Assembly (NCBI GenBank): GCA_035552155.1 | Contig: DASZLX010000032.1 | Location: 44,903 to 108,902 of the forward strand | Length of the DNA stretch: 64,000 nt | From: Verrucomicrobiia bacterium | Lineage (GTDB): Bacteria; Verrucomicrobiota; Verrucomicrobiia; Limisphaerales; DASXHY01 | Reading direction: 5' to 3' | Shown here: positions 3,779-59,027 of the stretch, piece after piece | Layout: every line of letters begins with the position of its first letter | Position numbering within the stretch: position 1 is the first letter of the stretch | Notes under the pieces: generated by a model | What the model saw: only the letters and a program-made list of their open reading frames with translations | Database searches by the model: none | Told to the model about the DNA's origin: nothing | Made by a program: the position numbers and the translations under genes

Positions 3779-4068
3779 GAAATGCGGGGAAACGGGCCCC
3801 CCTCCCTCCTTGAATAGGCTGGAATAGGCTTGAATGGGGGGAAGTGACGAGTGATGAGTGATTGGTAACGAGTGATGAGTGATAAGTGATGAGTGATGAG
3901 TGGCGAGCGGGAATGGGGGCTGGGGGTTTTTGGATTCATGGATTGGGGACGGCGCGAATTGATTTTTTTGACCGGGATTTACCCGGATAACTTCAGTTGA
4001 GAGGTGGAGAGTCAGGGAGGTTGAGGGTTGGGCTGAATACCGGAATCCGGGCCCGTTTCCGCATTTTC
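3779..4068. repeat. inverted-repeat-bounded intergenic element
   Basis: gaaatgcggggaaacgggccc (3779-3799) is an imperfect reverse complement of gggcccgtttccgcattttc (4049-4068). The interior holds short tandem word arrays. Confidence 0.7.
3843..3912. repeat. heptamer tandem array, about 10 x AGTGATG
   Basis: agtgacg agtgatg agtgatt ggtaacg agtgatg agtgata agtgatg agtgatg agtggcg agcggga, read directly. Preceded by a 10-nt word array, gaataggct x2-3, at 3811-3840. Confidence 0.9.
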
Positions 4069-6300: not shown

Positions 6301-6346
6301 GGGCCGCGCGGCAACGCGGCCCTACCAGGGGGTGCGGCCCTACCGG
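6301..6346. repeat. REP-like hairpin(s)
   Basis: gggccgcgcggcaacgcggccctacc (8-bp stem followed by tacc), then a partial second copy gtgcggccctacc. Confidence 0.75.
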
Positions 6347-6792: not shown

Positions 6793-6900
6793 GGGTGGGC
6801 GTGCGTCGTCGGCGCGACGTTGGGGCAATATAGGATCGTGGGCATGATTTTTCCGCCCGCTACTGCGCGGGCGGGGACGCCGCGGCGCGGCATCCCTACC
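6793..6900. repeat. composite REP cluster copy
   Basis: Contains gcgcgacgttggggc, related to gcgcaacgtggggc of the RAYT flanks, plus ttccgcccgctactgcgcgggcggggacgccgcggcgcggcatccctacc. Confidence 0.75.
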
Positions 6901-11438: not shown

Positions 11439-11909
11439 CTAGAACCAAGACTTGTGGCCGTCCACGTAGGTGCGCACGAATTCGTCATCGGATTTGGCCA
11501 GGTAAAGGATGCCTTCGATGAGCCCGATGAGGTGCATGATGGGATAGAGCGCTCCGCAGGATAGCACCGTGAGCAGGAGCATGGTAATGCCCGCGCCGGT
11601 GTAACCGAGGATGAATTTGTGCACGCCAAGGCCGCCGAGGATGATGCCGCAGACACCGGCGGGAATTTTATCCGAAGCGCGGGGATTAGAGATTAGCGGC
11701 GGGACTGCCGGGGCCGGAGTGATGGGCGGCGGCGACGTTTTAATTTCGGCGGCCAATTCGGGAAAGTAAGTGAGCGGCTTCCATTCGCCCGAGCCTTCCG
11801 CCTGGACCAGGGTTTCCGCGCGCACGCGGTTTTCGGCGATCCATTGCCGCATCTGCTGGACGGTCACGGGTCCGTATGGCTGTCCGTCGGCTCCGATGAT
11901 TTTATACAT
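11439..11909 (-). CDS. GYF-like (GYF_2/DUF4339-type) N-terminal module fused to a TM2-like membrane domain
   Basis: Starts MYKIIGADGQPYGPVTVQQMRQWI...EWKPLTYFPEL, then a Pro-rich linker and GGLGVHKFILGYTGAG (TM2-like). Internal ATG chosen by analogy with the paralogs. Confidence 0.8.
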   Translation of the reverse strand: MYKIIGADGQPYGPVTVQQMRQWIAENRVRAETLVQAEGSGEWKPLTYFPELAAEIKTSPPPITPAPAVPPLISNPRASDKIPAGVCGIILGGLGVHKFILGYTGAGITMLLLTVLSCGALYPIMHLIGLIEGILYLAKSDDEFVRTYVDGHKSWF

Positions 11910-11928
11910 AACGCACCTTTCGTTGCGG

Positions 11929-11958
11929 CGCGGACGGCGCAAGCGCGCCGTCCCTACC
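11929..11958. repeat. REP-like hairpin
   Basis: ggacggcgc aagc gcgccgtcc (9-bp stem) followed by ctacc. Confidence 0.8.
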
Positions 11959-12000
11959 TACTTGCAAGTGCCAGCGTGCGGCAAATTTCGGATTTTGCCA

Positions 12001-12348
12001 TTACATTTTCGGGGGGAGATTTGTAATGCGCGGCGGGACACTGCCGGGCGGCGGCGGTTCCGGGACCTTGCCTTCCCGCAGGAGGCTGAGGCTGGTCACG
12101 AGCGACCATATCCACGCGAGCGCAAACAGCGAAGCGCCGGCCAGAAAGTATCGGGTGTAGGAGACCGCCGGCTGATCGTCCATCGGGGTATAATAATCTT
12201 TCATCAGGCCGTAATATTTTTTCATCACCAGCACGAACCACACGAGGACGAGGGTAAAGCCGGCGAGGGCGAGCACGAGTTGGCCGATGCCGGGGAGGAT
12301 TCTGCGCCCCATGAGCGAGCCGAGGCCCGGCGTTGCGAATTGGTTCAT
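12001..12348 (-). CDS. small two-TM membrane protein
   Basis: Hydrophobic segments GIGQLVLALAGFTLVLVWFVLV and FLAGASLFALAWIWSLV, with a Pro-rich tail. Start uncertain (ATG 12348, or the upstream start at 12414 overlapping the previous gene). Confidence 0.5.
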   Translation of the reverse strand: MNQFATPGLGSLMGRRILPGIGQLVLALAGFTLVLVWFVLVMKKYYGLMKDYYTPMDDQPAVSYTRYFLAGASLFALAWIWSLVTSLSLLREGKVPEPPPPGSVPPRITNLPPKM

Positions 12349-12376
12349 CAGAAAACAATTTCGCGCCGCGGCCGGG

Positions 12377-13402
12377 CTAAGCGGTTTTGCGGCCGAAGAT
12401 TTCTTCATAAGCACACATGAGGGCGACCAGGGTCAGCGGAATGGTCACCAGCAGGCCGATACAACAGGCGCAAAAGCCGGCCACATTGATGAGGCCCATC
12501 ACCACCGCCAATCCAAAAACGTGGAACCAATGCCGGTGGACCATTTTCCAACTGATTTTCATCGCGCCCCAGAAGCCGATCTTTTTGTCGATGATGAGCG
12601 GCAGGACGAACATCCAGTTCACCGAGAAATACATGGCGGGGATCATGCACAGCAGGAACACCGGCAGGGACGCGGTGAAGGCGGACATCATGTGGGTGAA
12701 GATTTCCTGCGGGTTGACAGACCCGGGATTTTGCCGGAGGGAATCCATGAGCGGCGCCATTTTGGAGGCGTTCGCCATGTTGTAGGGAAGCATGCAGGCG
12801 GAGCCGATGACGCCGGGAATCAGTTTGCCGAGATAAAGGTCCTGAAAATGGCTGAAGCCGGTGAAAAGATTGCCGGCGCTGGCCGGTTGCCCGCGAATAA
12901 TGGAAAGATAAACGTGATAAAGGCCGCCGGCCGCCGGACCCATCACCAGCGCGAGGAAAATGAAATAGACGGGCGTGAGATATTGGGTGGTCTGGTAAGG
13001 GAGCCGATTCACGCCGCCCAGGGCGAGGATGGCCTGGATGATCAGGCTGGCGCCGAAAACGAGCGCCACCAGGAGCAGGAAGGTCACCAACAAGGTCCCG
13101 ACATTGTTCTTGAACACTCCCCAGGCGCGGCTGACGCAACCGCCGATGTCGAGGGAATAATCCCGCGCCAGGATTTCCTCCGGCGAAGCCGGAGCGGCGG
13201 CTGCCGCTTCAACCCCCGTTCCCGAAATAGCACCGGGCGCCAGGCCAAATTCGGGGTACATCTCCAGCGGTTTCCACTCCTGCGAACCTTCGAGGCAGAC
13301 CGGCGTTTTTCCATTCAGGCGGCCTTCCGAGATCCACTCCCGGATTTGGTCCTCGCTGATGGGCCCGTATTCTTTTTGGTCGGCTCCGATGATTTTATAC
13401 AT
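12377..13402 (-). CDS. GYF-like module fused to a polytopic (about 6 TM, DUF975-like) membrane domain
   Basis: MYKIIGADQKEYGPISEDQIREWISEGRL...EWKPLEMYPEF, then a linker and multiple TM helices. Confidence 0.8.
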   Translation of the reverse strand: MYKIIGADQKEYGPISEDQIREWISEGRLNGKTPVCLEGSQEWKPLEMYPEFGLAPGAISGTGVEAAAAAPASPEEILARDYSLDIGGCVSRAWGVFKNNVGTLLVTFLLLVALVFGASLIIQAILALGGVNRLPYQTTQYLTPVYFIFLALVMGPAAGGLYHVYLSIIRGQPASAGNLFTGFSHFQDLYLGKLIPGVIGSACMLPYNMANASKMAPLMDSLRQNPGSVNPQEIFTHMMSAFTASLPVFLLCMIPAMYFSVNWMFVLPLIIDKKIGFWGAMKISWKMVHRHWFHVFGLAVVMGLINVAGFCACCIGLLVTIPLTLVALMCAYEEIFGRKTA

Positions 13403-13453
13403 AAGACGGTTTCTGGCGTGAAAAAAATCCGCAGTGCGGTCGCGGCGTGGGCA

Positions 13454-14107
13454 TCATTGGAACTGCGATTTGACTTCCGATTTATTCAGGACCACCAAAG
13501 CCCAGATGCCGAAGGGGATGCCCAAAATGCAACAGCAACCGGCGCAGGGTATCATCGCGACGATGGCTGCCGCGATGGCGAGCGAGCGGCTTTGCAGGCG
13601 CAACATTTTGATGGCGCCGAGGAGGACGAAGGCGTTCACCACCACGATGAGCAGGCAAACTGCGATGCCGACGGTCCCCTGCATGTTTTGCATTATGGAT
13701 CGCATTTCCGGCGGAATATTGGCGGGCAGGTTCCGTTGAAACATCGCGCCGCCGCCAATCAACATGGCCAATCCCCGGAACAGGTATAACACGACCCCCA
13801 ACGAAGCAGTGACGATGAGCGCGATGGCCGGACCTTTCACCGCCTGGAGCGCGGCATCGCGCGAACCGGGAGCGCCCGGCATGGCCATGGGGGCGGGGGC
13901 GGAGCCAGGCGGCGGCGCGCTGGTTCCGGCGGCGGCCGGGCTCAGCACGTCGGCAAATTCCGCGAATGCGGAGAGCGTCTGCCATTCACCACCGTCGCGC
14001 TGCGCCCGCGTATGCGCATTCAAACGGCCATCGATGATCCATTGGCGAATTTGTTCAGCGGCGATGGGTCCATATTCCTTTTGGTCGGCTCCAATGATTT
14101 TAAACAT
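13454..14107 (-). CDS. GYF-like module fused to a 4-TM membrane domain
   Basis: MFKIIGADQKEYGPIAAEQIRQWIIDGRL...EWQTLSAFAEF, a Pro/Ala linker, then hydrophobic helices. Confidence 0.8.
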   Translation of the reverse strand: MFKIIGADQKEYGPIAAEQIRQWIIDGRLNAHTRAQRDGGEWQTLSAFAEFADVLSPAAAGTSAPPPGSAPAPMAMPGAPGSRDAALQAVKGPAIALIVTASLGVVLYLFRGLAMLIGGGAMFQRNLPANIPPEMRSIMQNMQGTVGIAVCLLIVVVNAFVLLGAIKMLRLQSRSLAIAAAIVAMIPCAGCCCILGIPFGIWALVVLNKSEVKSQFQ

Positions 14108-14139
14108 AATATTTTTCTATGGTTGCAAGGTTGGTTTGC

Positions 14140-15006
14140 TCATGGATTCCACCGCAGGCCGGCGAGCCGGTCGGAGGTCAATTGTTGAACACTGCCATCG
14201 GCGAAGGCCACGACGCACAAGCGGCCATGGCGCGATTTTGGAAGCATCAACTCCGGGCCGCCACTGGTGTTCCAGCCGTCTTCGGTTTCAAAAAGGAGAA
14301 CCGTATTGGGAGCGATGTTTTTTTCTTCGATGCCATCGAGTTGGGAATTAAAAGCATAGTCGCACCGGTCGGTGGGACCTGCGGCGGGACATTTGAAAAC
14401 CCTTTCAGAAGGAGCATACGATTTGATGGAATCACACCACGTTTTCGCGGGCGGCAAATGGTCTCCATGGTCCCCGGAATAAATGCGCACCGCCAGCGCC
14501 AATTGTTTCATGTTATTGACGCATTGAATCGTTTGCGCGCGCTGTTTGGCTTTGGACAGGGCCGGCAAAAGCATTGCCCCCTCGAGAGGAATCATCAGGA
14601 GCAACACGGCGGACACGATGGTTCCCGCCAGTGCGATGCCAAAACCACTGAGAGCGCCGTTGCTTTTTTTCACCCGGTTTATCGCGATGATACCGAGGAT
14701 TAACCCGATCACCGCGCCGATGCCGCACGTGAACAATCCCAGGACACCTGAAATGAGTGAGCCAATGGCCAGGCCGCTGGTTCTGGACGGTGGAGGGGGG
14801 GCGGAGGGTGCGGGGGAAACCATCGGCGGAACGCGGTGCGCAAAGGCCGCGGTAAATTCCGGGAATTCGCTTAGCGGCTTCCAATCGCCGCCGTCAGCCT
14901 GCGTCCTGGTTTGGAAGTTGACGCGACCTTGCGCAATCCATTGATTCATCTGGTCTGCCGAAACCGGGCCGTACTCCTTCTGGTCCGCTCCGATGATTTT
15001 ATACAT
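14140..15006 (-). CDS. GYF-like module + DUF4190-like TM pair + pseudopilin-like (DUF1559-type, H-X9-DG) ectodomain
   Basis: MYKIIGADQKEYGPVSADQMNQWI.... SGLAIGSLISGVLGLFTCGIG...INRVKKSNG is DUF4190-like. LLPALSKAKQRAQTIQCVNNMKQLALA and HGRLCVVAFADG give the H-X9-DG motif. An alternative start lies 9 nt upstream at 15015. Confidence 0.8.
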   Translation of the reverse strand: MYKIIGADQKEYGPVSADQMNQWIAQGRVNFQTRTQADGGDWKPLSEFPEFTAAFAHRVPPMVSPAPSAPPPPSRTSGLAIGSLISGVLGLFTCGIGAVIGLILGIIAINRVKKSNGALSGFGIALAGTIVSAVLLLMIPLEGAMLLPALSKAKQRAQTIQCVNNMKQLALAVRIYSGDHGDHLPPAKTWCDSIKSYAPSERVFKCPAAGPTDRCDYAFNSQLDGIEEKNIAPNTVLLFETEDGWNTSGGPELMLPKSRHGRLCVVAFADGSVQQLTSDRLAGLRWNP

Positions 15007-15081
15007 AGGCGTCATCCTTGGACATGTTTTCCAACGCTCCCACTGTGGAGCTTTTACCCAATTGTCCCTGACAAAGCAAGG

Positions 15082-15549
15082 TCAGGCCGCGAACCATTGA
15101 AAAATCGGGAACGGTAAATTCCGCAGAAGGCCGAACAAAATCCAAGCGGCGAGATAGCACCACAGCCAGCGGGCATTCAGAGGCAGAGAGCCGCCGCGCA
15201 TGGTGAGCCACATCCAGCGCAGACCGAACCACGCGGCAAGTGGCAGCGAAAGGACGAACATCGCGTTCAGTTGGAAAGCCGCGATGAGGTTCCCGTGCAA
15301 CAATTGATGCAGGGCACGCTGTGCGCCGCAGCCGGGGCAGTCCAACCCGGTTATTTGATGAAACATGCAGGGGGGGAAAATAGCGACCTGCGTGGGATCA
15401 AAGGCGAAGTAAATCAGGGCGCCGGTGGCGCATAAAAGGCAAACGCCCGCCAGCAGCAACGCCCTGGCGCTGGGAAATCCGACCCGCGTGAGGTTAGAGC
15501 CGGTAAACATGATGTATCGGATGGCCCAAAGCGGCGGACGCAAAGACAA
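15082..15549 (-). CDS. DUF2752-like membrane protein
   Basis: Motif GLDCPGCGAQRALHQLLHG plus four hydrophobic helices. The 5' end overlaps the upstream gene, so the start is uncertain (15549 or 15510). Confidence 0.7.
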   Translation of the reverse strand: MSLRPPLWAIRYIMFTGSNLTRVGFPSARALLLAGVCLLCATGALIYFAFDPTQVAIFPPCMFHQITGLDCPGCGAQRALHQLLHGNLIAAFQLNAMFVLSLPLAAWFGLRWMWLTMRGGSLPLNARWLWCYLAAWILFGLLRNLPFPIFQWFAA

Positions 15550-15988
15550 CAGCTAATATGATTACTATCAGGGCGAGGCTCATCAGGGAAAGCACCAACC
15601 CGGCGATGGCCATGCCTTTGCCGTCATATCGATTCGGGTTGCTTTTAATTTGAGACAGGGCGACGAGCGACAAAATCAGGCCGGTGATGTTGAACGGCAG
15701 TCCGTAACAACAACACAAGCCGAAGGTCAGGGAAAAAATTCCCAGGATCAGGCTGGTGAGGGCGAGAGCGGAGCTTTTGTAAGCGGCCGGCGCTGCGGCA
15801 GTGGAAGGGGCTGTCGCTGCGAACAAGAGGGAGAATTCCGGCAGCGCACTGAGGTTTTTCCATTCGGTTGCGCCCTGCGCGAGCGTGGGCGTGGCGGCAT
15901 TGGCGCGGCCTTCGGTGATCCATTGGCGCAATTGGTCGGCGGAAATGGGGCCGTACTCCTTTCCATCGGCTCCGATGACTCTATACAT
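15494..15988 (-). CDS. GYF-like module fused to a DUF4190-like membrane domain
   Basis: MYRVIGADGKEYGPISADQLRQWITEGR...EWKNLSALPEF, then LALTSLILGIFSLTFGLCCC...SQIKSNPNRYDGKG. Confidence 0.8.
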   Translation of the reverse strand: MYRVIGADGKEYGPISADQLRQWITEGRANAATPTLAQGATEWKNLSALPEFSLLFAATAPSTAAAPAAYKSSALALTSLILGIFSLTFGLCCCYGLPFNITGLILSLVALSQIKSNPNRYDGKGMAIAGLVLSLMSLALIVIILAVVFASAALGHPIHHVYRL

Positions 15989-16031
15989 GAATGGACTCTG
16001 GTTAATTCTCTGGCTGGCGTCAAGTGCGACA

Positions 16032-16162
16032 GTAGGGACGGCGCGCTGGCGCCGTCAGCGCCGCGTTCAGCGGCGCAACGTGGGGCGTGGCTGGAGTCGT
16101 GGGTTTGAGTTGTTCCGCCCGCTACTGCGCGGGTAGGGACGCCGTGGCACGGCGTCCCTACC
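16032..16162. repeat. composite REP cluster, left flank of the RAYT gene
   Basis: tagggacggcgcgctggcgccgtc, gcgccgcgttcagcggcgc, aacgtggggcg, a spacer, ccgcccgctactgcgcgggt, then the perfect palindrome ggtagggacgccgtggcacggcgtccctacc. Confidence 0.9.
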
Positions 16163-16215
16163 AATCTTCTTCGCTGCGCTTGCTGAATTTGATTTTGTCG
16201 TCTTAACTGCCCTCA

Positions 16216-16689
16216 ATGGAAATTCCACAGCGCAAAAGGTTGCCTCATGAGGTGCCGTCGTGGGTGGACCCGCAAAAGGAAATTTATTTCATCACCATCA
16301 ACTGCAAAAAGCGTTTTCAAAATCAGCTCACCTTGCCAGGCATAGCCGAACAACTATTCGAAACGGTTCGTCATCGGCAGGAAGGATTTTTGTGGTGGCC
16401 TTATTTATTTTTGCTGATGCCTGACCATTTGCACGCCCTTCTTTCGTTTCCTCCGTCCGGAAAGCCGCTAAAACAGATCGTTTCCAAATGGAAGGAATGG
16501 ACGGCCAAGGAAATTAAAATAGCTTGGCAACGCGATTTTTTTGAGCATCGGTTGCGGCGGGAAGAAAGCCGCCGGGAAAAAGCCGACTATATTTTACAAA
16601 ATCCGGTTCGCGCAAAATTAATCGCACGGCCGGAAGAATGGCCGTTCATCTATTTTGGGGATGGCCAACGCCCGCAATTCGACTGGTAG
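16216..16689 (+). CDS. REP-associated tyrosine transposase (RAYT; IS200/IS605 TnpA-like Y1 HUH enzyme)
   Basis: HUH motif PDHLHALLSF and catalytic-Tyr motif ADYILQNPVRAKL. 157 aa. Flanked on both sides by the same REP cluster. Confidence 0.85.
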   Translation: MEIPQRKRLPHEVPSWVDPQKEIYFITINCKKRFQNQLTLPGIAEQLFETVRHRQEGFLWWPYLFLLMPDHLHALLSFPPSGKPLKQIVSKWKEWTAKEIKIAWQRDFFEHRLRREESRREKADYILQNPVRAKLIARPEEWPFIYFGDGQRPQFDW

Positions 16690-16815
16690 GGATGGCGCGC
16701 CTGCGCCGTCAGCGCCGCGTTCAGCGGCGCAACGTGGGGCGTAATTCACGCGATCGGCTCGCGGATTCCGCCCGCTACTGCGCGGGCGGGGACGCCGTGG
16801 CACGGCGTCCCTACC
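16685..16815. repeat. composite REP cluster, right flank of the RAYT gene (direct copy of 16032-16162)
   Basis: ggtagggatggcgcgcctgcgccgtcagcgccgcgttcagcggcgcaacgtggggcg ... ttccgcccgctactgcgcgggcggggacgccgtggcacggcgtccctacc. It begins on the RAYT stop codon. Confidence 0.9.
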
Positions 16816-16838
16816 ACCTCACGGCTGTCGAAGGCGGA

Positions 16839-18010: not shown

Positions 18011-18092
18011 TAGGGCGCAGACGCGTCGTTGGCGTCATTTTTTTTCGCCCGCTATTACGCGGGCGGGCACGCCATGGCGCGGCGTCCCTACC
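18011..18092. repeat. composite REP cluster copy (shortened)
   Basis: tagggcgcagacgcgtcgttggcgtc followed by ttcgcccgctattacgcgggcgggcacgccatggcgcggcgtccctacc. Confidence 0.75.
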
Positions 18093-26254: not shown

Positions 26255-28849
26255 ATGGCAGTCGCAGGTTCGCCCCGGCCACGCGTCGTTGTTGATGGCA
26301 AGTTTTTCCGGCTGGGCGGCAAAAAATTTTACGTCAAAGGCATCGCGTATGGGCCGCTCCCGCCCAATGCGCAAGGCCAGCCTTTTGCGTCCCCGGAACA
26401 AACCGCGCTGGACCTGGATCAAATCCGCGAGCTGGGCGCCAATGTTCTCCGGGTTTATCACCTGCCGCCGCGCTGGTTTCTCGACATGGCGGACAGCCGC
26501 GAGCTGAAGGTGCTGGTGGACATTCCGTGGAACAAGCATCTGAGTTTCGATACCGCCGCGCGCCGGGCGGAGGCGCGCGAAGCCGTGCGCAATGCGGTCG
26601 CGACCTGTTCGCGCCATCCGGCGGTGTTCGCGTTCAGCATCGCGAATGAAATTCCGCCGGACATCATTCGCTGGACCGGCGCGAAGGCGGCGGCGAATTT
26701 CATCGATGAACTGGTATTCGAGGCGCGCCGCGTGGATCCCGATTGCCTGTGCACCTACAGTAATTTTCCTTCGACGGAATTTCTGCGCCCGCGCGCGGTG
26801 GATTTTGTCACCTTCAACGTGTACCTGCACCAGGAGCTGGCCTTCAAAAATTACCTGGCGCGGCTGCAGATGATGGCGGACAACAAACCGCTGGTGCTCG
26901 GCGAATTCGGCATCGATTCGCTGCGGGAAGGCGCGGCGCGCCAGTCCGAAATGTTATCCTGGCAGATCGAGGACTCGTTTCGCGCCGGGCTGGCGGGCAC
27001 GGTAGTTTTCACCTTCACTGACGAATGGTTCCGGGACAACCGTGTGGTGGAAGACTGGAAAATGGGGCTCGTCTCGAACGACCGCGGGCCGAAGGAATCT
27101 TTTTCGGGGGTGAAAAGGATGTTCCACGCTGCGCCGTATTTTCCACTGGCCAATTATCCGAAAGTTTCCGTCGTAGTCGCGAGCTACAATGGCGCGCGCA
27201 CGCTGAAGCAGTGCCTGGAATCGTTGCAACGGCTGAATTATCCCGATTACGAAATTATTCTCGTGGATGACGGCTCGACGGATGCGACGCAAAAGATCGC
27301 TTCTGAGGTGGAGCGTGCTTCACCGGGGGCGACGGTGCCGGATGAATCCGGACGGCGTGCGCGGAGCGGCGCGCCCTACCCGCCGTTCATTAACATTCGC
27401 CATGAAAAGAATTTTGGACTGTCGATTGCGCGGAACACAGGCATTGCGGCAGCCACCGGCGAAATCGTCGCCTTCACCGATTCTGACTGCCGCGCGGATG
27501 AGGACTGGCTTTATTATCTCGTGGGCAGCCTGGCGGGGAGCGAATTTGTGGGTGTGGGCGGCCCAAACCTGTTGCCGCCGGAGGATTCACGGGTGGCGGC
27601 GGCAGTGATGGTTTCGCCGGGCGGCCCGGCGCATGTGATGCTGACCGACCGCGAGGCGGAGCACATTCCCGGCTGCAACATGGCGTTTTACAAACGCGCG
27701 CTGGAGGAAATCGGCGGGTTCGATCCGATTTTTATGAAAGCGGGCGACGACGTGGACGTGTGCTGGCGCCTGCAACAGGCGGGTTGCAAGATAGGATTCA
27801 GTCCCTCGGCATTTGTCTGGCACTACCGGCGCTCGACGATGGGCGCGTATTTGAAACAGCAGGAGGGTTACGGCGAAGCCGAGGCGTTGCTGGTGCGCAA
27901 ACATCCGGAAAACTTCAATTCCTTCGGCGGCGGCATCTGGCAGGGACGGATTTACGCGTCGTCCAAGTACGGCGTCGAGTTGCGCGCGCCGGTAATTTAT
28001 CACGGCCTGTTCGGCAGCGCGGGATTTCAGAAGATATACGCGCCCGAGCCCTCCGGGACGCTGATGTTTTGCACGACCCTGGAGTATCATTTATTCGTCA
28101 CCATTCCCTTGTGGATTTTGACGGGAATATTTCATTATCTGCTGCCGCTCGCCATTGCGGGGCTTTTGATTCCAGCGGGTGTCTGCGCGCTGGCGGGGGC
28201 GCAGGCCGAATTGCCGGCGAGCAAAATCAGGTGGTGGTCGCGCCCGCTGGTGGCGCTGCTCTTTTTTTTGCAGCCGATTGTTCGCGGCGTGGCGCGTTAC
28301 CAGGGACGGCTGGCTCAGCGGCCGTTGGAATTGGCGGCGCAGGAATCGCTGGATTCAGTGGCGCTGTTCCATGGCGGCAAACCGTTGAACGAAGTGCAGT
28401 ATTGGGCGGGCCAGCGAATCGACCGGCTGGATTTTGTGGCCGCGATTTTCCGGCGGCTGCAGGAGCGCGGCTGGCCGAACAAATCGGACGTGGGCTGGAG
28501 CGATTACGATGTGGAAATCAACGGCAGTCGCTGGAGCCATTTGCTGCTGACCACGGTGGTGGAAGACCACCCGCAGGGACGCCGCCTGGTGCGCTGCCGA
28601 TTGCGCGCCATCTGGTCGTTCCAGGCGAAAGTCAATTTTTGGGCGTTGCTGGGATTGGAATTTTTGTTTATCGGGCTGATGGGCTTTGAGCGAGTCTGGC
28701 CGTGGTTCGTGCTGCTGACGTTGCCGGTCTTCGGATGGTTTGTTCAGCGTCAGCGGCGCAAAGTTCAAAGCGTGGTGACTGTTTTCCTGGATCAACTCGC
28801 CAAGGAATTGGGCCTTACGAAAATCCACCCGGATTCAGACGGTCATTGA
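26255..28849 (+). CDS. trimodular protein: N-terminal glycoside-hydrolase-like TIM barrel, GT2 glycosyltransferase, C-terminal membrane domain
   Basis: N-terminus FYVKGIAYGP...LGANVLRVYH...NEIP is GH-like. VSVVVASYNGA...ILVDDGSTD...FTDSDC...GCNMAF is GT2. Hydrophobic helices follow after about aa 590. Confidence 0.8.
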   Translation: MAVAGSPRPRVVVDGKFFRLGGKKFYVKGIAYGPLPPNAQGQPFASPEQTALDLDQIRELGANVLRVYHLPPRWFLDMADSRELKVLVDIPWNKHLSFDTAARRAEAREAVRNAVATCSRHPAVFAFSIANEIPPDIIRWTGAKAAANFIDELVFEARRVDPDCLCTYSNFPSTEFLRPRAVDFVTFNVYLHQELAFKNYLARLQMMADNKPLVLGEFGIDSLREGAARQSEMLSWQIEDSFRAGLAGTVVFTFTDEWFRDNRVVEDWKMGLVSNDRGPKESFSGVKRMFHAAPYFPLANYPKVSVVVASYNGARTLKQCLESLQRLNYPDYEIILVDDGSTDATQKIASEVERASPGATVPDESGRRARSGAPYPPFINIRHEKNFGLSIARNTGIAAATGEIVAFTDSDCRADEDWLYYLVGSLAGSEFVGVGGPNLLPPEDSRVAAAVMVSPGGPAHVMLTDREAEHIPGCNMAFYKRALEEIGGFDPIFMKAGDDVDVCWRLQQAGCKIGFSPSAFVWHYRRSTMGAYLKQQEGYGEAEALLVRKHPENFNSFGGGIWQGRIYASSKYGVELRAPVIYHGLFGSAGFQKIYAPEPSGTLMFCTTLEYHLFVTIPLWILTGIFHYLLPLAIAGLLIPAGVCALAGAQAELPASKIRWWSRPLVALLFFLQPIVRGVARYQGRLAQRPLELAAQESLDSVALFHGGKPLNEVQYWAGQRIDRLDFVAAIFRRLQERGWPNKSDVGWSDYDVEINGSRWSHLLLTTVVEDHPQGRRLVRCRLRAIWSFQAKVNFWALLGLEFLFIGLMGFERVWPWFVLLTLPVFGWFVQRQRRKVQSVVTVFLDQLAKELGLTKIHPDSDGH
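27350..27380. repeat. REP-like sequence embedded in-frame in the GT2 domain
   Basis: ggacggcgtgcgcggagcggcgcgccctacc resembles the REP at 11929-11958 and encodes ...GRRARSGAPYP... between the DDGSTD and NFGLSIARN blocks. Confidence 0.5.
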
Positions 28850-53163: not shown

Positions 53164-55368
53164 ATGATGTACGAAGTAGTAACGTCCGCCCGTCTGAAAG
53201 GGTTGGCGCTCAGGATTCTGTTATGGGGATCATTAATTTTAACGCCTTTTCTTGCGGTAGGTGCCGGAAGCGTGAGCCTGATTTGGAACGCCAGCACTAA
53301 TACGGGGATTACGGGCTATAATGTCTATTACGGCAGCGCGAGTCGCAATTACCCGAACCAAGTTTCCGCCGGTAACAACCTCAGTGCCGTGGTTTCCGGT
53401 TTGTCCAACGGAAATTACTTTTTTGCGGTGACCGCGGTGGACGCGCTCGGCAACGAGAGCGATTTTTCCAACGAAATCAATTACCAGATAGCCGGAGTCA
53501 ATCAGCCGCCGACGATTTCCTCTATTTCGAGCCTGAGCGTAACTGTCGGCCAGACCATTGCTCCCCTCGCTTTCACGATCAATGACCCCGACAGCGGTCC
53601 GAGCAGTTTGATTCTCTCGGTCGTTTCCTCGAATCCGGGAATGGTGCCCAACGGGAACATTGTGTTCGGCGGCAGCGGCCAGAACCGCACCCTGACCATC
53701 ACACCGGTCGACGGGCAGACCGGGGGCGCGGAAATTACGGTCACAGTGAGTGACGGGAGCCTGACCGCGCAGAGCAGCTTTGCGTTGAACATCCAGCCGG
53801 TTTCCTCAGGCAATCATGCGCCGACGATTTCGGCCATTGCCGACCAGAGCATCAATGCCGGTACGGCCGCCGGGCCGGTCGCTTTCACGATTAATGATCA
53901 GGACACGGGCGCGAGCGGTTTGACGCTCTCGGCGGTTTCCTCGAATACGGGATTGGTGCCGAATGGCAACGTCGTCTTCGGCGGCAGCGGCCAAAATCGC
54001 ACCGTGACCGTCACGCCCCGAGCAGGCCAGACGGGAGCCGCGCAGATTACCGTCACGGTAAGCGACGGGAGCCTGACCGCTCAGAGCAGCTTCACCGTGA
54101 ACGTCCAACCGGTCGTCTCAGTCAACCATGCGCCGACGATTTCGGCCATCGCCGACCAGAGCGCTTATGCGGGCGTGGCCACTGGACCGATTGGTTTCAC
54201 GATCAATGATCAGGATACGGGCGCGAACGGGTTGATCCTGTCGGCGGGTTCGTCGAATACGGGACTGGTGCCGAACGGGAACATAGTCTTCGGCGGCAGC
54301 GGCCAAAATCGTACAGTGACCATTACGCCGCTGGCGGGCCAGACGGGCGCGGCGCAGATTACCGTCACGGTGAGCGACGGAAGCCTGACCGCGCAGAGCA
54401 GCTTCGCCGTGAATGTTCAACAGTCCGCCGCACTGCCGACCGCGAGCGCGGGCAAGAGTACCTACAACGGATTGTTTTTTGACCCGGCCGGACTGCAACC
54501 GCAAAGCGCTGGCGCGGTTAAAATATCCGTGACGACTGGCGGCAGGTATTCCGGATCGGTGCAGATGGCGGCGGCCCGTTATTCTTTTAGCGGCCAGTTT
54601 GGCGCGCTCTGCCAGGGAACCGCCGTCATCCAGAGAAAGGGCGCCAACTCGCTCAACGTCAATTTCACTTTGAAACCCGGGTCCTCGGGACAGCTCACGG
54701 GGAGCATGTCGGATGGCACCTGGACCGCGCAAATTCTCGGTGGCCTGGCGGCGTTCAATTCGAAAACGAATCCCGCGCCTTATGCGGGCAGTTACACCCT
54801 GGAAATCCCGGGCCAAGCCGCGCCGTTTTCGTTGGGCAATGGTTTCGGCTCCATCAAGGTGGATGGCAGCGGCAATGTGAAGCTGACGGGAATGCTCGCC
54901 GACGGCACGAAACTCAGCCAATCGGCGCCGCTTTCGAGCGATGGCACCTGGCCGGTCTTTGTGCCGCTGTATTCCGGGAAAGGCCTGATCCTGGGCTGGA
55001 TATCGTTCGTGAGCCGCGCGGGTGATGACCTGCACGGGACGTTGAGCTGGCTCAAGTTGTCGGTGCCCAACACGCGTATTTATCCCGGCGGCCTAGCCGT
55101 GGCGAGCGACGCCGTCGGTTCCGCATTTGTGCCAGGACCTCAACCGTTCGTTTTCGGCAGAGTGCAACTGCAATTGGGAGAGGCAGGCAACGGCTTGATC
55201 ATGGCGCTTAAAGTTTCGCCCACGACGGGCCTGTTCAACGGCAACATTCTGGATCGCGCCACCGGAAAACCGGAAAAGTTCCAAGGGGCTCTGCTGGACA
55301 AGGTGAACGCCGGCTATGGCTTTGTCCTCGGAACCAACCAAAGCACGCCCGTCACGCTGATCCAGTAG
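53164..55368 (+). CDS. large secreted protein: FN3-like module, three 104-aa Ig/cadherin-like repeats, C-terminal domain
   Basis: Signal anchor. SVSLIWNAS...GYNVYYG...YFFAVTAVDALGNES is FN3-like. Then 3 x (N[QH][PA]PTIS...FTIND.D.G...VPNGN.VFGGSGQNRT.T.TP..GQTG.A.ITVTVSDGSLTAQSSF). Confidence 0.8.
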   Translation: MMYEVVTSARLKGLALRILLWGSLILTPFLAVGAGSVSLIWNASTNTGITGYNVYYGSASRNYPNQVSAGNNLSAVVSGLSNGNYFFAVTAVDALGNESDFSNEINYQIAGVNQPPTISSISSLSVTVGQTIAPLAFTINDPDSGPSSLILSVVSSNPGMVPNGNIVFGGSGQNRTLTITPVDGQTGGAEITVTVSDGSLTAQSSFALNIQPVSSGNHAPTISAIADQSINAGTAAGPVAFTINDQDTGASGLTLSAVSSNTGLVPNGNVVFGGSGQNRTVTVTPRAGQTGAAQITVTVSDGSLTAQSSFTVNVQPVVSVNHAPTISAIADQSAYAGVATGPIGFTINDQDTGANGLILSAGSSNTGLVPNGNIVFGGSGQNRTVTITPLAGQTGAAQITVTVSDGSLTAQSSFAVNVQQSAALPTASAGKSTYNGLFFDPAGLQPQSAGAVKISVTTGGRYSGSVQMAAARYSFSGQFGALCQGTAVIQRKGANSLNVNFTLKPGSSGQLTGSMSDGTWTAQILGGLAAFNSKTNPAPYAGSYTLEIPGQAAPFSLGNGFGSIKVDGSGNVKLTGMLADGTKLSQSAPLSSDGTWPVFVPLYSGKGLILGWISFVSRAGDDLHGTLSWLKLSVPNTRIYPGGLAVASDAVGSAFVPGPQPFVFGRVQLQLGEAGNGLIMALKVSPTTGLFNGNILDRATGKPEKFQGALLDKVNAGYGFVLGTNQSTPVTLIQ
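53500..54430 (+). repeat. tandem repeat, 3 x 312 nt, in-frame
   Basis: Units start at 53500, 53812 and 54124. Units 2 and 3 share long identical runs, e.g. ccatgcgccgacgatttcggccat.gccgaccagagc. Confidence 0.9.
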
Positions 55369-58880: not shown

Positions 58881-59027
58881 TAGGGATTCTCGGGCAGGGC
58901 CACGAGTATCGGGTCACCTTACTTTCGCCGCGTACGGCGGCGCTTTCGAAACGTTCCAGACTCTTGGATTTATCACCTTTTCCGCCCGCTGAGCGCGGGC
59001 GCGACGCCGCGGCACGGCGTTTCTACC
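58881..59027. repeat. degenerate composite REP cluster copy
   Basis: ttaggg..., tcgccgcgtacggcggcgc ..., ttccgcccgctgagcgcgggcgcgacgccgcggcacggcgtttctacc. Confidence 0.65.

Follow-up and report, generated by a model that had tools for sequence, protein, structure and literature searches.

A REP-associated tyrosine transposase gene bracketed by direct doublets of GTAG-headed REPs in a Verrucomicrobiota genome

Genes for REP-associated tyrosine transposases (RAYTs), first described by Nunvar 2010 (PMC2817692), lie next to repetitive extragenic palindromes (REPs), which bear a GT(A/G)G head and a palindrome and are scattered over the genome in numerous extragenic copies. Here, we analyse one such gene in a 64,000-nucleotide stretch of DNA from a Verrucomicrobiia bacterium (assembly GCA_035552155.1, contig DASZLX010000032.1; G000:C32:44903-108902 in our numbering), hereafter the window. 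The source genome comprises 5.10 Mb in 58 contigs with a G+C content of 56.7%, and its relatives are Verrucomicrobiota of subdivision 3/Limisphaerales. Within the window, an open reading frame (ORF) at 16216-16689 is flanked by two composite repeats of about 130 nt, at 16032-16162 and 16686-16815, which read in the same direction with a start-to-start distance of 653-654 nt (Table 1).

We found that the 157-residue product of this ORF is a RAYT with intact catalytic residues, as the original prediction had proposed from its HUH (HLH) and YxxxNP motifs. The protein scored 93.4 bits against the NCBIfam equivalog NF047646, 'REP-associated tyrosine transposase' (cut-off 80), and reached neither the cut-off of the IS200 TnpA model NF033573 (19.6 bits, cut-off 55) nor that of Pfam Y1_Tnp (19.6 bits, cut-off 23). 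Its sole real match in the PDB was E. coli TnpA-REP (4ER8; phmmer E=4e-9, residues 24-147), in which the HMH motif and Y115 align with H71-L-H73 of its PDHLH motif and with Y125 of DYILQNPVR. In an alignment of 26 relatives, H71-L-H73, Y125 and N129-P-V-R132 were invariant. RAYT-specific motifs include a conserved threonine near the N terminus and NP(L/V)(R/K)xG after the tyrosine (Nunvar 2010, PMC2817692). The threonine is T27 in FITIN, a position held by T or S throughout the clade, and the final glycine of the second motif has been lost (NPVRAK). Homologues fill more than 1,300 90%-identity clusters in the protein database, the best being 84% identical, and many of these clusters carry the IMG name 'REP element-mobilizing transposase RayT'. 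The gene is present in a single copy in the genome, where other Y1 ORFs are at most 35% identical and no TnpB was found, and its G+C content is 48.1% versus 57.7% for the window.

Both flanking composites follow one plan, consisting of module A (GGTAGGGAC, hairpin 1, hairpin 2), a spacer of ~30 nt, and module B (hairpin 2', hairpin 1', TCCCTACC). Between the left and right copies, module A is 95% identical and module B ~96%, and the spacers (~25-31 nt) are unrelated. When the B consensus is reverse-complemented, it agrees with that of A at 43 of 52 positions (83%), and the differences in the stems are paired changes. As A and reverse-complemented B share the same order of GTAG head, hairpin 1 and hairpin 2, the composite is an inverted doublet of two REPs with the GTAG heads outward, and hence the gene-proximal REPs, B to the left and A to the right, are mutually inverted with their heads towards the gene. 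This inner pair is formed by B at 16113-16162, whose CTACC head faces the gene, and A at 16686-16735, whose GTAG lies at the stop codon; the outer pair is inverted too. The 'direct' orientation is thus a property of the doublets and not of the REPs. In the terms of Di Nocera the composite is a head-to-head heterodimer, and in those of Bertels & Rainey a REPIN-like unit; it also resembles the bacterial interspersed mosaic element (BIME) BIME-1. The original prediction had seen in the direct, multi-hairpin flanks a departure from the proteobacterial pattern; the composites are indeed direct, but the gene-proximal REPs are inverted in the classical RAYT arrangement (Nunvar 2010, PMC2817692), and dimers, heterodimers and BIME-flanked RAYTs have already been described (PMC2817692, PMC3733652).

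The right doublet begins on the RAYT stop codon, as had been noticed, the TAG at 16687-16689 being that of the GTAG head of module A. A perfect palindrome had been proposed to end both doublets. It is present in the left copy only, as 31 nt of GGTAGGGACGCCGTGGCACGGCGTCCCTACC produced by a change of GGGCGGGG to GGGTAGGG, and the right copy reads GCGGGGACG... at this point. Folding of both strands of both copies as single-stranded DNA (ssDNA) gave the predicted hairpins (z-scores of -4.5 to -6.2), and the right copy can in addition be closed by pairing of its two heads. Cores of 25 nt matched the window 7 and 3 times, compared with 0.00 and 0.01 matches expected from shuffles, and a chance origin of the flanking repeats is excluded. 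We also observed that the two doublets beside the gene have rare module variants in common, a B loop GTGGCAC and an A link CAG that each occur only three times in the genome, yet differ entirely in their spacers (16082-16112 versus 16736-16765). Each spacer is of a type present in other family members, type 1 (..TCGTGGGYWTGA..) on the left and type 2 (AATTYRCGCGRTYGGCTCGCGGA) on the right; this mismatch might stem from gene conversion of the modules or from doublets recombining with each other.

Table 1. The RAYT gene, its flanking doublets and dispersed members of the same REP family in the window.
Feature	Coordinates	Strand	Evidence or remark
RAYT gene	16216..16689	+	157 aa; HUH at H71/H73, catalytic Tyr Y125; NF047646, 4ER8, invariant residues
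Left doublet, module A: GTAG head GTAGGGAC, hairpin 1 GGACGGCGC/GCGCCGTC, hairpin 2 GCGCCGC/GCGGCGC	16032..16081	+	nhmmer 51.7 bits, ssDNA fold, alignment
Left doublet, spacer of type 1 (..TCGTGGGTTTGA..)	16082..16112	+	unlike the right doublet's spacer
Left doublet, module B: inverted REP; inner hairpin CCGCCCGC/GCGGG, terminal hairpin, CTACC head; extended to a 31-nt perfect palindrome	16113..16162	+	nhmmer 44.4 bits
Right doublet, module A; GTAG head donates the RAYT stop	16686..16735	+	nhmmer 52.2 bits
Right doublet, spacer of type 2 (AATTCACGCGATCGGCTCGCGGA)	16736..16765	+	same type in a G005 copy
Right doublet, module B: inverted REP, end TCCCTACC	16766..16815	+	nhmmer 46.9 bits
Dispersed copy: intact module B (6851-6900) with decayed module A upstream	6793..6900	+	nhmmer
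Dispersed partial, inverted module A: head, hairpin 1, start of hairpin 2	11925..11957	-	nhmmer
Dispersed module B in the trpD-hlyD spacer	18043..18092	+	nhmmer; orthologous G005 site is a full A+B doublet
Dispersed copy: module B (58980-59027) preceded by a decayed and interrupted module A	58881..59027	+	nhmmer

The genome-wide census that the original prediction called for, made with iterated nhmmer profiles of the two modules, revealed 54 A and 58 B modules (112 in total) at 85 loci on many contigs, comprising 27 doublets, 27 A singles and 31 B singles. All 27 doublets run from A to B with the heads outward, mostly with a spacer of 19-34 nt and a total length of 96-133 nt. The four further copies in the window are among those that had been predicted, although the one near 18 kb is a B module and that near 12 kb a partial A. 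Some 'singles' are decayed doublets, as those at 6793-6900 and 58881-59027 retain remnants of module A. The hairpins are kept by compensatory changes: pair 12-25 of module A is G-C in 22 copies, A-T in 16, G-T in 3 and unpaired in none, and its covariation score was reached by 0 of 500 shuffles and collapsed in slid controls. For the inner stem of module B, 29 copies have T.A, 14 have C.G and one is mismatched. A subfamily of B bears the A-type hairpin 1 in inverted form, and therefore homodimers exist too. The predicted RAYT/REP association stands on these data, with a repeat family that reaches far beyond the window and a protein that profiles do not group with IS200 in a genome where TnpB was not found.

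Wholly intergenic loci make up 66 of the 85 (78%), versus 14.5% of random placements, as judged by a crude gene caller (codon log-odds on ORFs) that called 81.6% of the genome coding and overlooked the RAYT gene itself; 11 'intragenic' REP loci are raw calls of this program. Strongly extragenic loci, stable hairpins, a left palindrome that scores as terminator-like and the age and divergence of the copies would each suit host-selected, immobile structural elements (terminators, mRNA stabilisers or protein-binding sites) for which adjacency to a RAYT is a historical remnant. We regard such a role as highly improbable. Sites differ between sister species and orthologous sites are empty (see below), and termination needs neither a conserved GTAG head nor the tight overlap of gene and REP seen throughout the clade. 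Moreover, the loci showed no lean to gene 3' ends or to convergent spacers, with tandem (39), convergent (17) and divergent (17) spacers occurring at base rates. A correlation of REP orientation with gene direction, suggested as a check in the original prediction, was not detected (16 same versus 22 opposite, p=0.42), nor was the ratio of 3 to 10 for doublets alone significant.

A RAYT relative is encoded in 210 species genomes, and we compared the locus with the best 80 of these, which nearly all belong to Verrucomicrobiota. In the majority of these orthologous loci, A/B-like GTAGGGA REPs lie on both sides of the gene, and orthologous RAYTs elsewhere in the phylum are flanked by near-identical GGTAGGGACGGCGCGCTGCGCCGTCC REPs. 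Sufficient flank and a recognisable flank repeat were available at 57 loci, of which 46 had a direct and 11 an inverted best repeat. In ~30 orthologous loci, the TAG of GGTAGGG serves as the stop codon, and repeat homology begins at the preceding GG. Direct doublets with the stop inside the 3' GTAG are thus the norm of the verrucomicrobial RAYT clade and not, as first supposed, unusual. In one metagenome-assembled genome (MAG), a 1,318-nt segment holding a RAYT orthologue with direct REP flanks occurs on two contigs (L056 and L057) at 99.5% identity. We considered this duplicate as a REP-bounded transposition and rejected it, as the homology runs 360 and 220 nt past the REPs.

The genome holds at least three families of GTAG-headed REPs, and each RAYT is paired specifically with its own. 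The single hairpin at 6301-6346 (GGTAGGGCCGCG...), previously counted with the A/B repeats, belongs to a different family, which flanks a second RAYT gene outside the window. This RAYT-2 (C35:123411-123922, minus strand) encodes 170 aa, is 35% identical to the RAYT studied here, and has GTAG REPs (GGTAGGGCGGCGCTGCCGCGCCGCCCC) on its flanks in inverted orientation. Its presence with its own REPs in the congener G008 (C1:299499-299861) is consistent with vertical inheritance, which RAYT-2 appears to follow. RAYT-2 was tried as the true cognate enzyme of the A/B family and rejected as its primary partner in view of the distinct REPs on both of its flanks, in G008 too; the A/B doublet closest to it (C35:127434-127557) is ~3.5 kb off. 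No A/B REP was found within 5 kb of the four other Y1-domain ORFs that we checked (C35:91368, C15, C37 and C36). The copy predicted to lie inside a coding sequence, at 27350-27380, does sit in frame within an 864-aa glycosyltransferase-like ORF (26255-28849), where it encodes ...SGRRARSGAPYP..., but it represents a third GTAG-REP family, GTAGGGCGCG[TC]C[GA]CTCCG[CT]GCGCGCC. None of the ~39 strict copies of this family in the genome was found adjacent to a RAYT.

Judged from sequence, the locus is very probably a REPtron, that is, a single-copy RAYT of the HUH/Y1 ssDNA endonucleases in the IS200/IS605 superfamily, bracketed by its cognate GTAG-tagged REPs. By analogy to E. coli TnpA-REP (Ton-Hoang 2012, as cited in PMC3733652; Messing 2012, PMC3479197), a RAYT dimer would bind the REP hairpin in single-stranded DNA and cleave at the GTAG head through Tyr125, with a metal held by His71 and His73. 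REP doublets might then be excised, rejoined or copied as non-autonomous passengers. Relocation or horizontal transfer probably brought the gene, with REPs of its own, to its present site.

The E. coli REPtron (yafM/tnpA-REP, with BIME-2 flanks and the 4ER8 structure) shares with this locus a single-copy HUH/Y1 enzyme of ~160 aa (the best match among PDB entries), REPs in which a palindrome follows the GTAG head, and a gene bracketed by composites of two REP types in alternating orientation. It differs in several respects. The protein match is distant (phmmer E=4e-9, residues 24-147). Here each REP arm has a second conserved hairpin, dispersed units never exceed a doublet and form no long BIME arrays, the 3' GTAG contains the stop codon, and the host is one of the Verrucomicrobiota. 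A parallel within the phylum is provided by the GTAG-17/19 repeats of Opitutus terrae, one of the GTAG-tagged REP sets of the PVC superphylum (Di Nocera 2013, PMC3733652). This verrucomicrobial genome has GTAG-headed stem-loops, head-to-head dimers and heterodimers, REPtrons specific to their REPs, more than one family, copies inside genes and GTAG-donated TAG stops. Compared at the level of their description, dimer partners are 1-2 bp apart in O. terrae and separated by a ~30-nt spacer here. More generally, GTAG REPs, head-to-head and tail-to-tail hetero- and homodimers, REPtrons, 3'-overlapping REPs and GTAG-donated TAG stops have already been described, Verrucomicrobia included (Di Nocera 2013, PMC3733652), and the present locus is a further REPtron of known type and not a new kind of system.

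As in the REPIN-RAYT systems of Pseudomonas fluorescens, the repeated unit is an inverted REP doublet with a short spacer of conserved length, singlets look like decayed doublets, and a single-copy RAYT is flanked by doublets. A REPIN, in what Bertels and Rainey reportedly proposed in 2011, is a pair of inverted REPs with a short spacer that recurs as a unit. The family described here has fewer copies (27 doublets and 58 singles, versus hundreds in P. fluorescens), and its arms are diverged alleles (83% identity) whereas those of P. fluorescens are near-identical. Group 2/3 RAYTs are said to be domesticated, single copy per genome and vertically inherited, a view reportedly put forward by Bertels and colleagues in 2017. 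The gene studied here is single copy as well, but its distribution departs from vertical inheritance at the level of the genus.

We examined this distribution in 11 same-genus genomes, ten of them fragmented MAGs and one (G008) a single contig. Since RAYT homologues in metagenomes mostly sit on contigs of 1-3 kb, absence from a MAG bin is weak evidence, save for G008. None of the 11 genomes contained a RAYT orthologue even at E<=1, the best matches being paralogues of 31-41% identity. The gene order hlyD-trpD-GYF-membrane-GYF is kept in five congeners (G005, G008, G003, G002 and G007), with TrpD 83-92% identical, and in each the trpD-GYF spacer measures 48-276 nt and lacks both the RAYT gene and A/B REPs. 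At this site, the 785-nt cassette (16032-16816) is lineage-specific, and one gain is a more parsimonious explanation than five losses. A lone doublet, as expected from recombination between direct repeats, is retained in none of the five syntenic congeners. The spacers of G003 (L118) and G007 (L120) hold third-family REPs (GGTAGGGCGCGTCACTCCGTGCGCGCC), and the trpD-GYF spacer is a REP hotspot, a recurrent landing site for REPs. The REP sites themselves also differ between species. Of 16 sites in G008, one is shared with the source genome and at least six are empty there; the corresponding numbers for 20 sites in G005 are ~5 and at least six. Whole doublets in G008 or G005 occur at sites that are empty in the source genome, with flanks 75-90% identical and junctions that are not clean, a pattern compatible with insertion and deletion alike. 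In G008, we also noted a ~330-nt element resembling a miniature inverted-repeat transposable element (MITE) at L108, L109, L111 and L112, with terminal inverted repeats GTGACAGAAAGCGAGGGTCAT.../...ATGACCCTCA..TTCTGTCAC and a module A REP at one end, which accounts for most of the 'A single' matches in that genome.

Several of these observations weigh against a simple account in which the RAYT of this locus spread the REPs around it. The A/B family is present in G003, G004, G005, G007 and G008, each with at least 11-25 matches, and all five are without a RAYT orthologue; nor were RAYT remnants detected in the REP-bearing congeners at E<=1. The doublets of the source genome are old and diverse, with a pairwise identity of 71% in the median and 95% at most. 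As the module variants of the RAYT-side doublets are rare, the dispersed population was not recently copied from them. Finally, when filled sites in G008 and G005 were aligned with empty ones in the source genome, no clean boundary emerged and neither a target motif nor a duplication could be defined; GTAG...CTAC does not exactly delimit the extra DNA. Given the RAYT-less congeners that bear A/B REPs, the RAYT may not be the enzyme that spread the dispersed copies.

One scenario built on these points is that the RAYT arrived late and that an earlier RAYT copy, since lost or unassembled, or another paralogue spread the A/B REPs in the ancestor of the subclade. We see this as possible but unlikely. 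It would account for A/B REPs in RAYT-less congeners, including the single-contig G008, for cassette REPs that are minority variants, and for REP sites that mostly differ between species although those species lack this RAYT gene; the genus also conserves another RAYT, RAYT-2, whose GTAGGG-headed REPs are related. Yet REPs are known to persist after RAYT loss in E. coli strains (PMC3733652), which suits a REPtron with its own cognate REPs equally well. The modules flanking the RAYT clearly belong to the same family as the dispersed ones (44-52 bits), and the near-identical REPs at orthologous RAYTs indicate a specific pairing of protein and REP.

The patchy distribution also raises the question of whether the cassette is a still autonomous, TnpA-only IS200-like insertion sequence, in which the doublets are same-strand left and right ends (LE and RE), the dispersed REPs are MITE-like derivatives, and the gene is not a domesticated, vertically inherited RAYT. 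IS200/IS605 insertion sequences encode an IS200-type TnpA, are usually multicopy and often carry TnpB. Their catalytic fold and chemistry are probably the same as those of the RAYT; IS608 and ISDra2 recognise subterminal hairpins on one strand, as the RAYT would too, and their ends share one orientation, as the flanks do here. The cassette is missing from the syntenic site of five congeners, the G+C content of the ORF is 9.6 points below its surroundings, distant genomes match the RAYT more closely (65-83% identity) than they match TrpD (55-73%), and some relatives carry two copies, one pair being 99.5% identical over 1,318 nt. However, the gene is single copy in the source genome, the IS200 profile falls far under its cut-off (19.6 bits versus 55) where the RAYT profile exceeds its own, no TnpB is found in the genome, and tblastn against PLSDB returned no plasmid-borne relative. 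Full inverted REP doublets form the ends and also occur by themselves at 80 or more loci, the 99.5% duplicate is not REP-bounded, and the absence from MAGs counts for little. We therefore consider an autonomous insertion sequence rather doubtful.

It is conceivable, though we hold it to be unlikely, that in Verrucomicrobiota the RAYT has remained mobile together with one REP doublet, the two moving jointly from site to site, and probably from lineage to lineage, through RAYT-mediated single-strand recombination at the GTAG head. Speculatively, a single-stranded circle of doublet and gene might integrate at a GTAG head. Such an event would give precisely the layout seen here, in the order doublet-gene-doublet with the doublets direct and the stop codon formed by the junction GTAG.

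Beyond the REPtron, other repeats were apparent in the window. On the minus strand at 11800-16000 lies a paralogous gene array whose five copies (at 11807, 13300, 14005, 14904 and 15886) share a ~105-nt 5' segment encoding an N-terminal MYKIIGADxKEYGP (GYF-like) domain, and which is conserved in congeners. Three tandem repeats of ~300 nt at 53496-54419 (period 312 nt, 74-75% identical) probably encode a repeated protein domain, and a short tandem array of GTGATGA-like heptamer units occupies 3843-3907.

In summary, this locus leaves known RAYT/REP biology unchanged and provides a well-resolved REPtron from an under-studied phylum, with a layout that extends across its clade. A REP family common to sister species, together with a cassette present in only one of them at a syntenic site, offers a natural test of whether REP populations rely on a RAYT of their own and whether the inheritance of RAYTs is invariably vertical, and makes the patchy cassette of note for REPIN-RAYT evolution. 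If the RAYT and its doublet do prove to be a mobile unit, the clade would bridge autonomous IS200-like elements and the domesticated RAYTs of proteobacteria, whose inheritance is strictly vertical, and REP populations could be re-seeded by an incoming RAYT.

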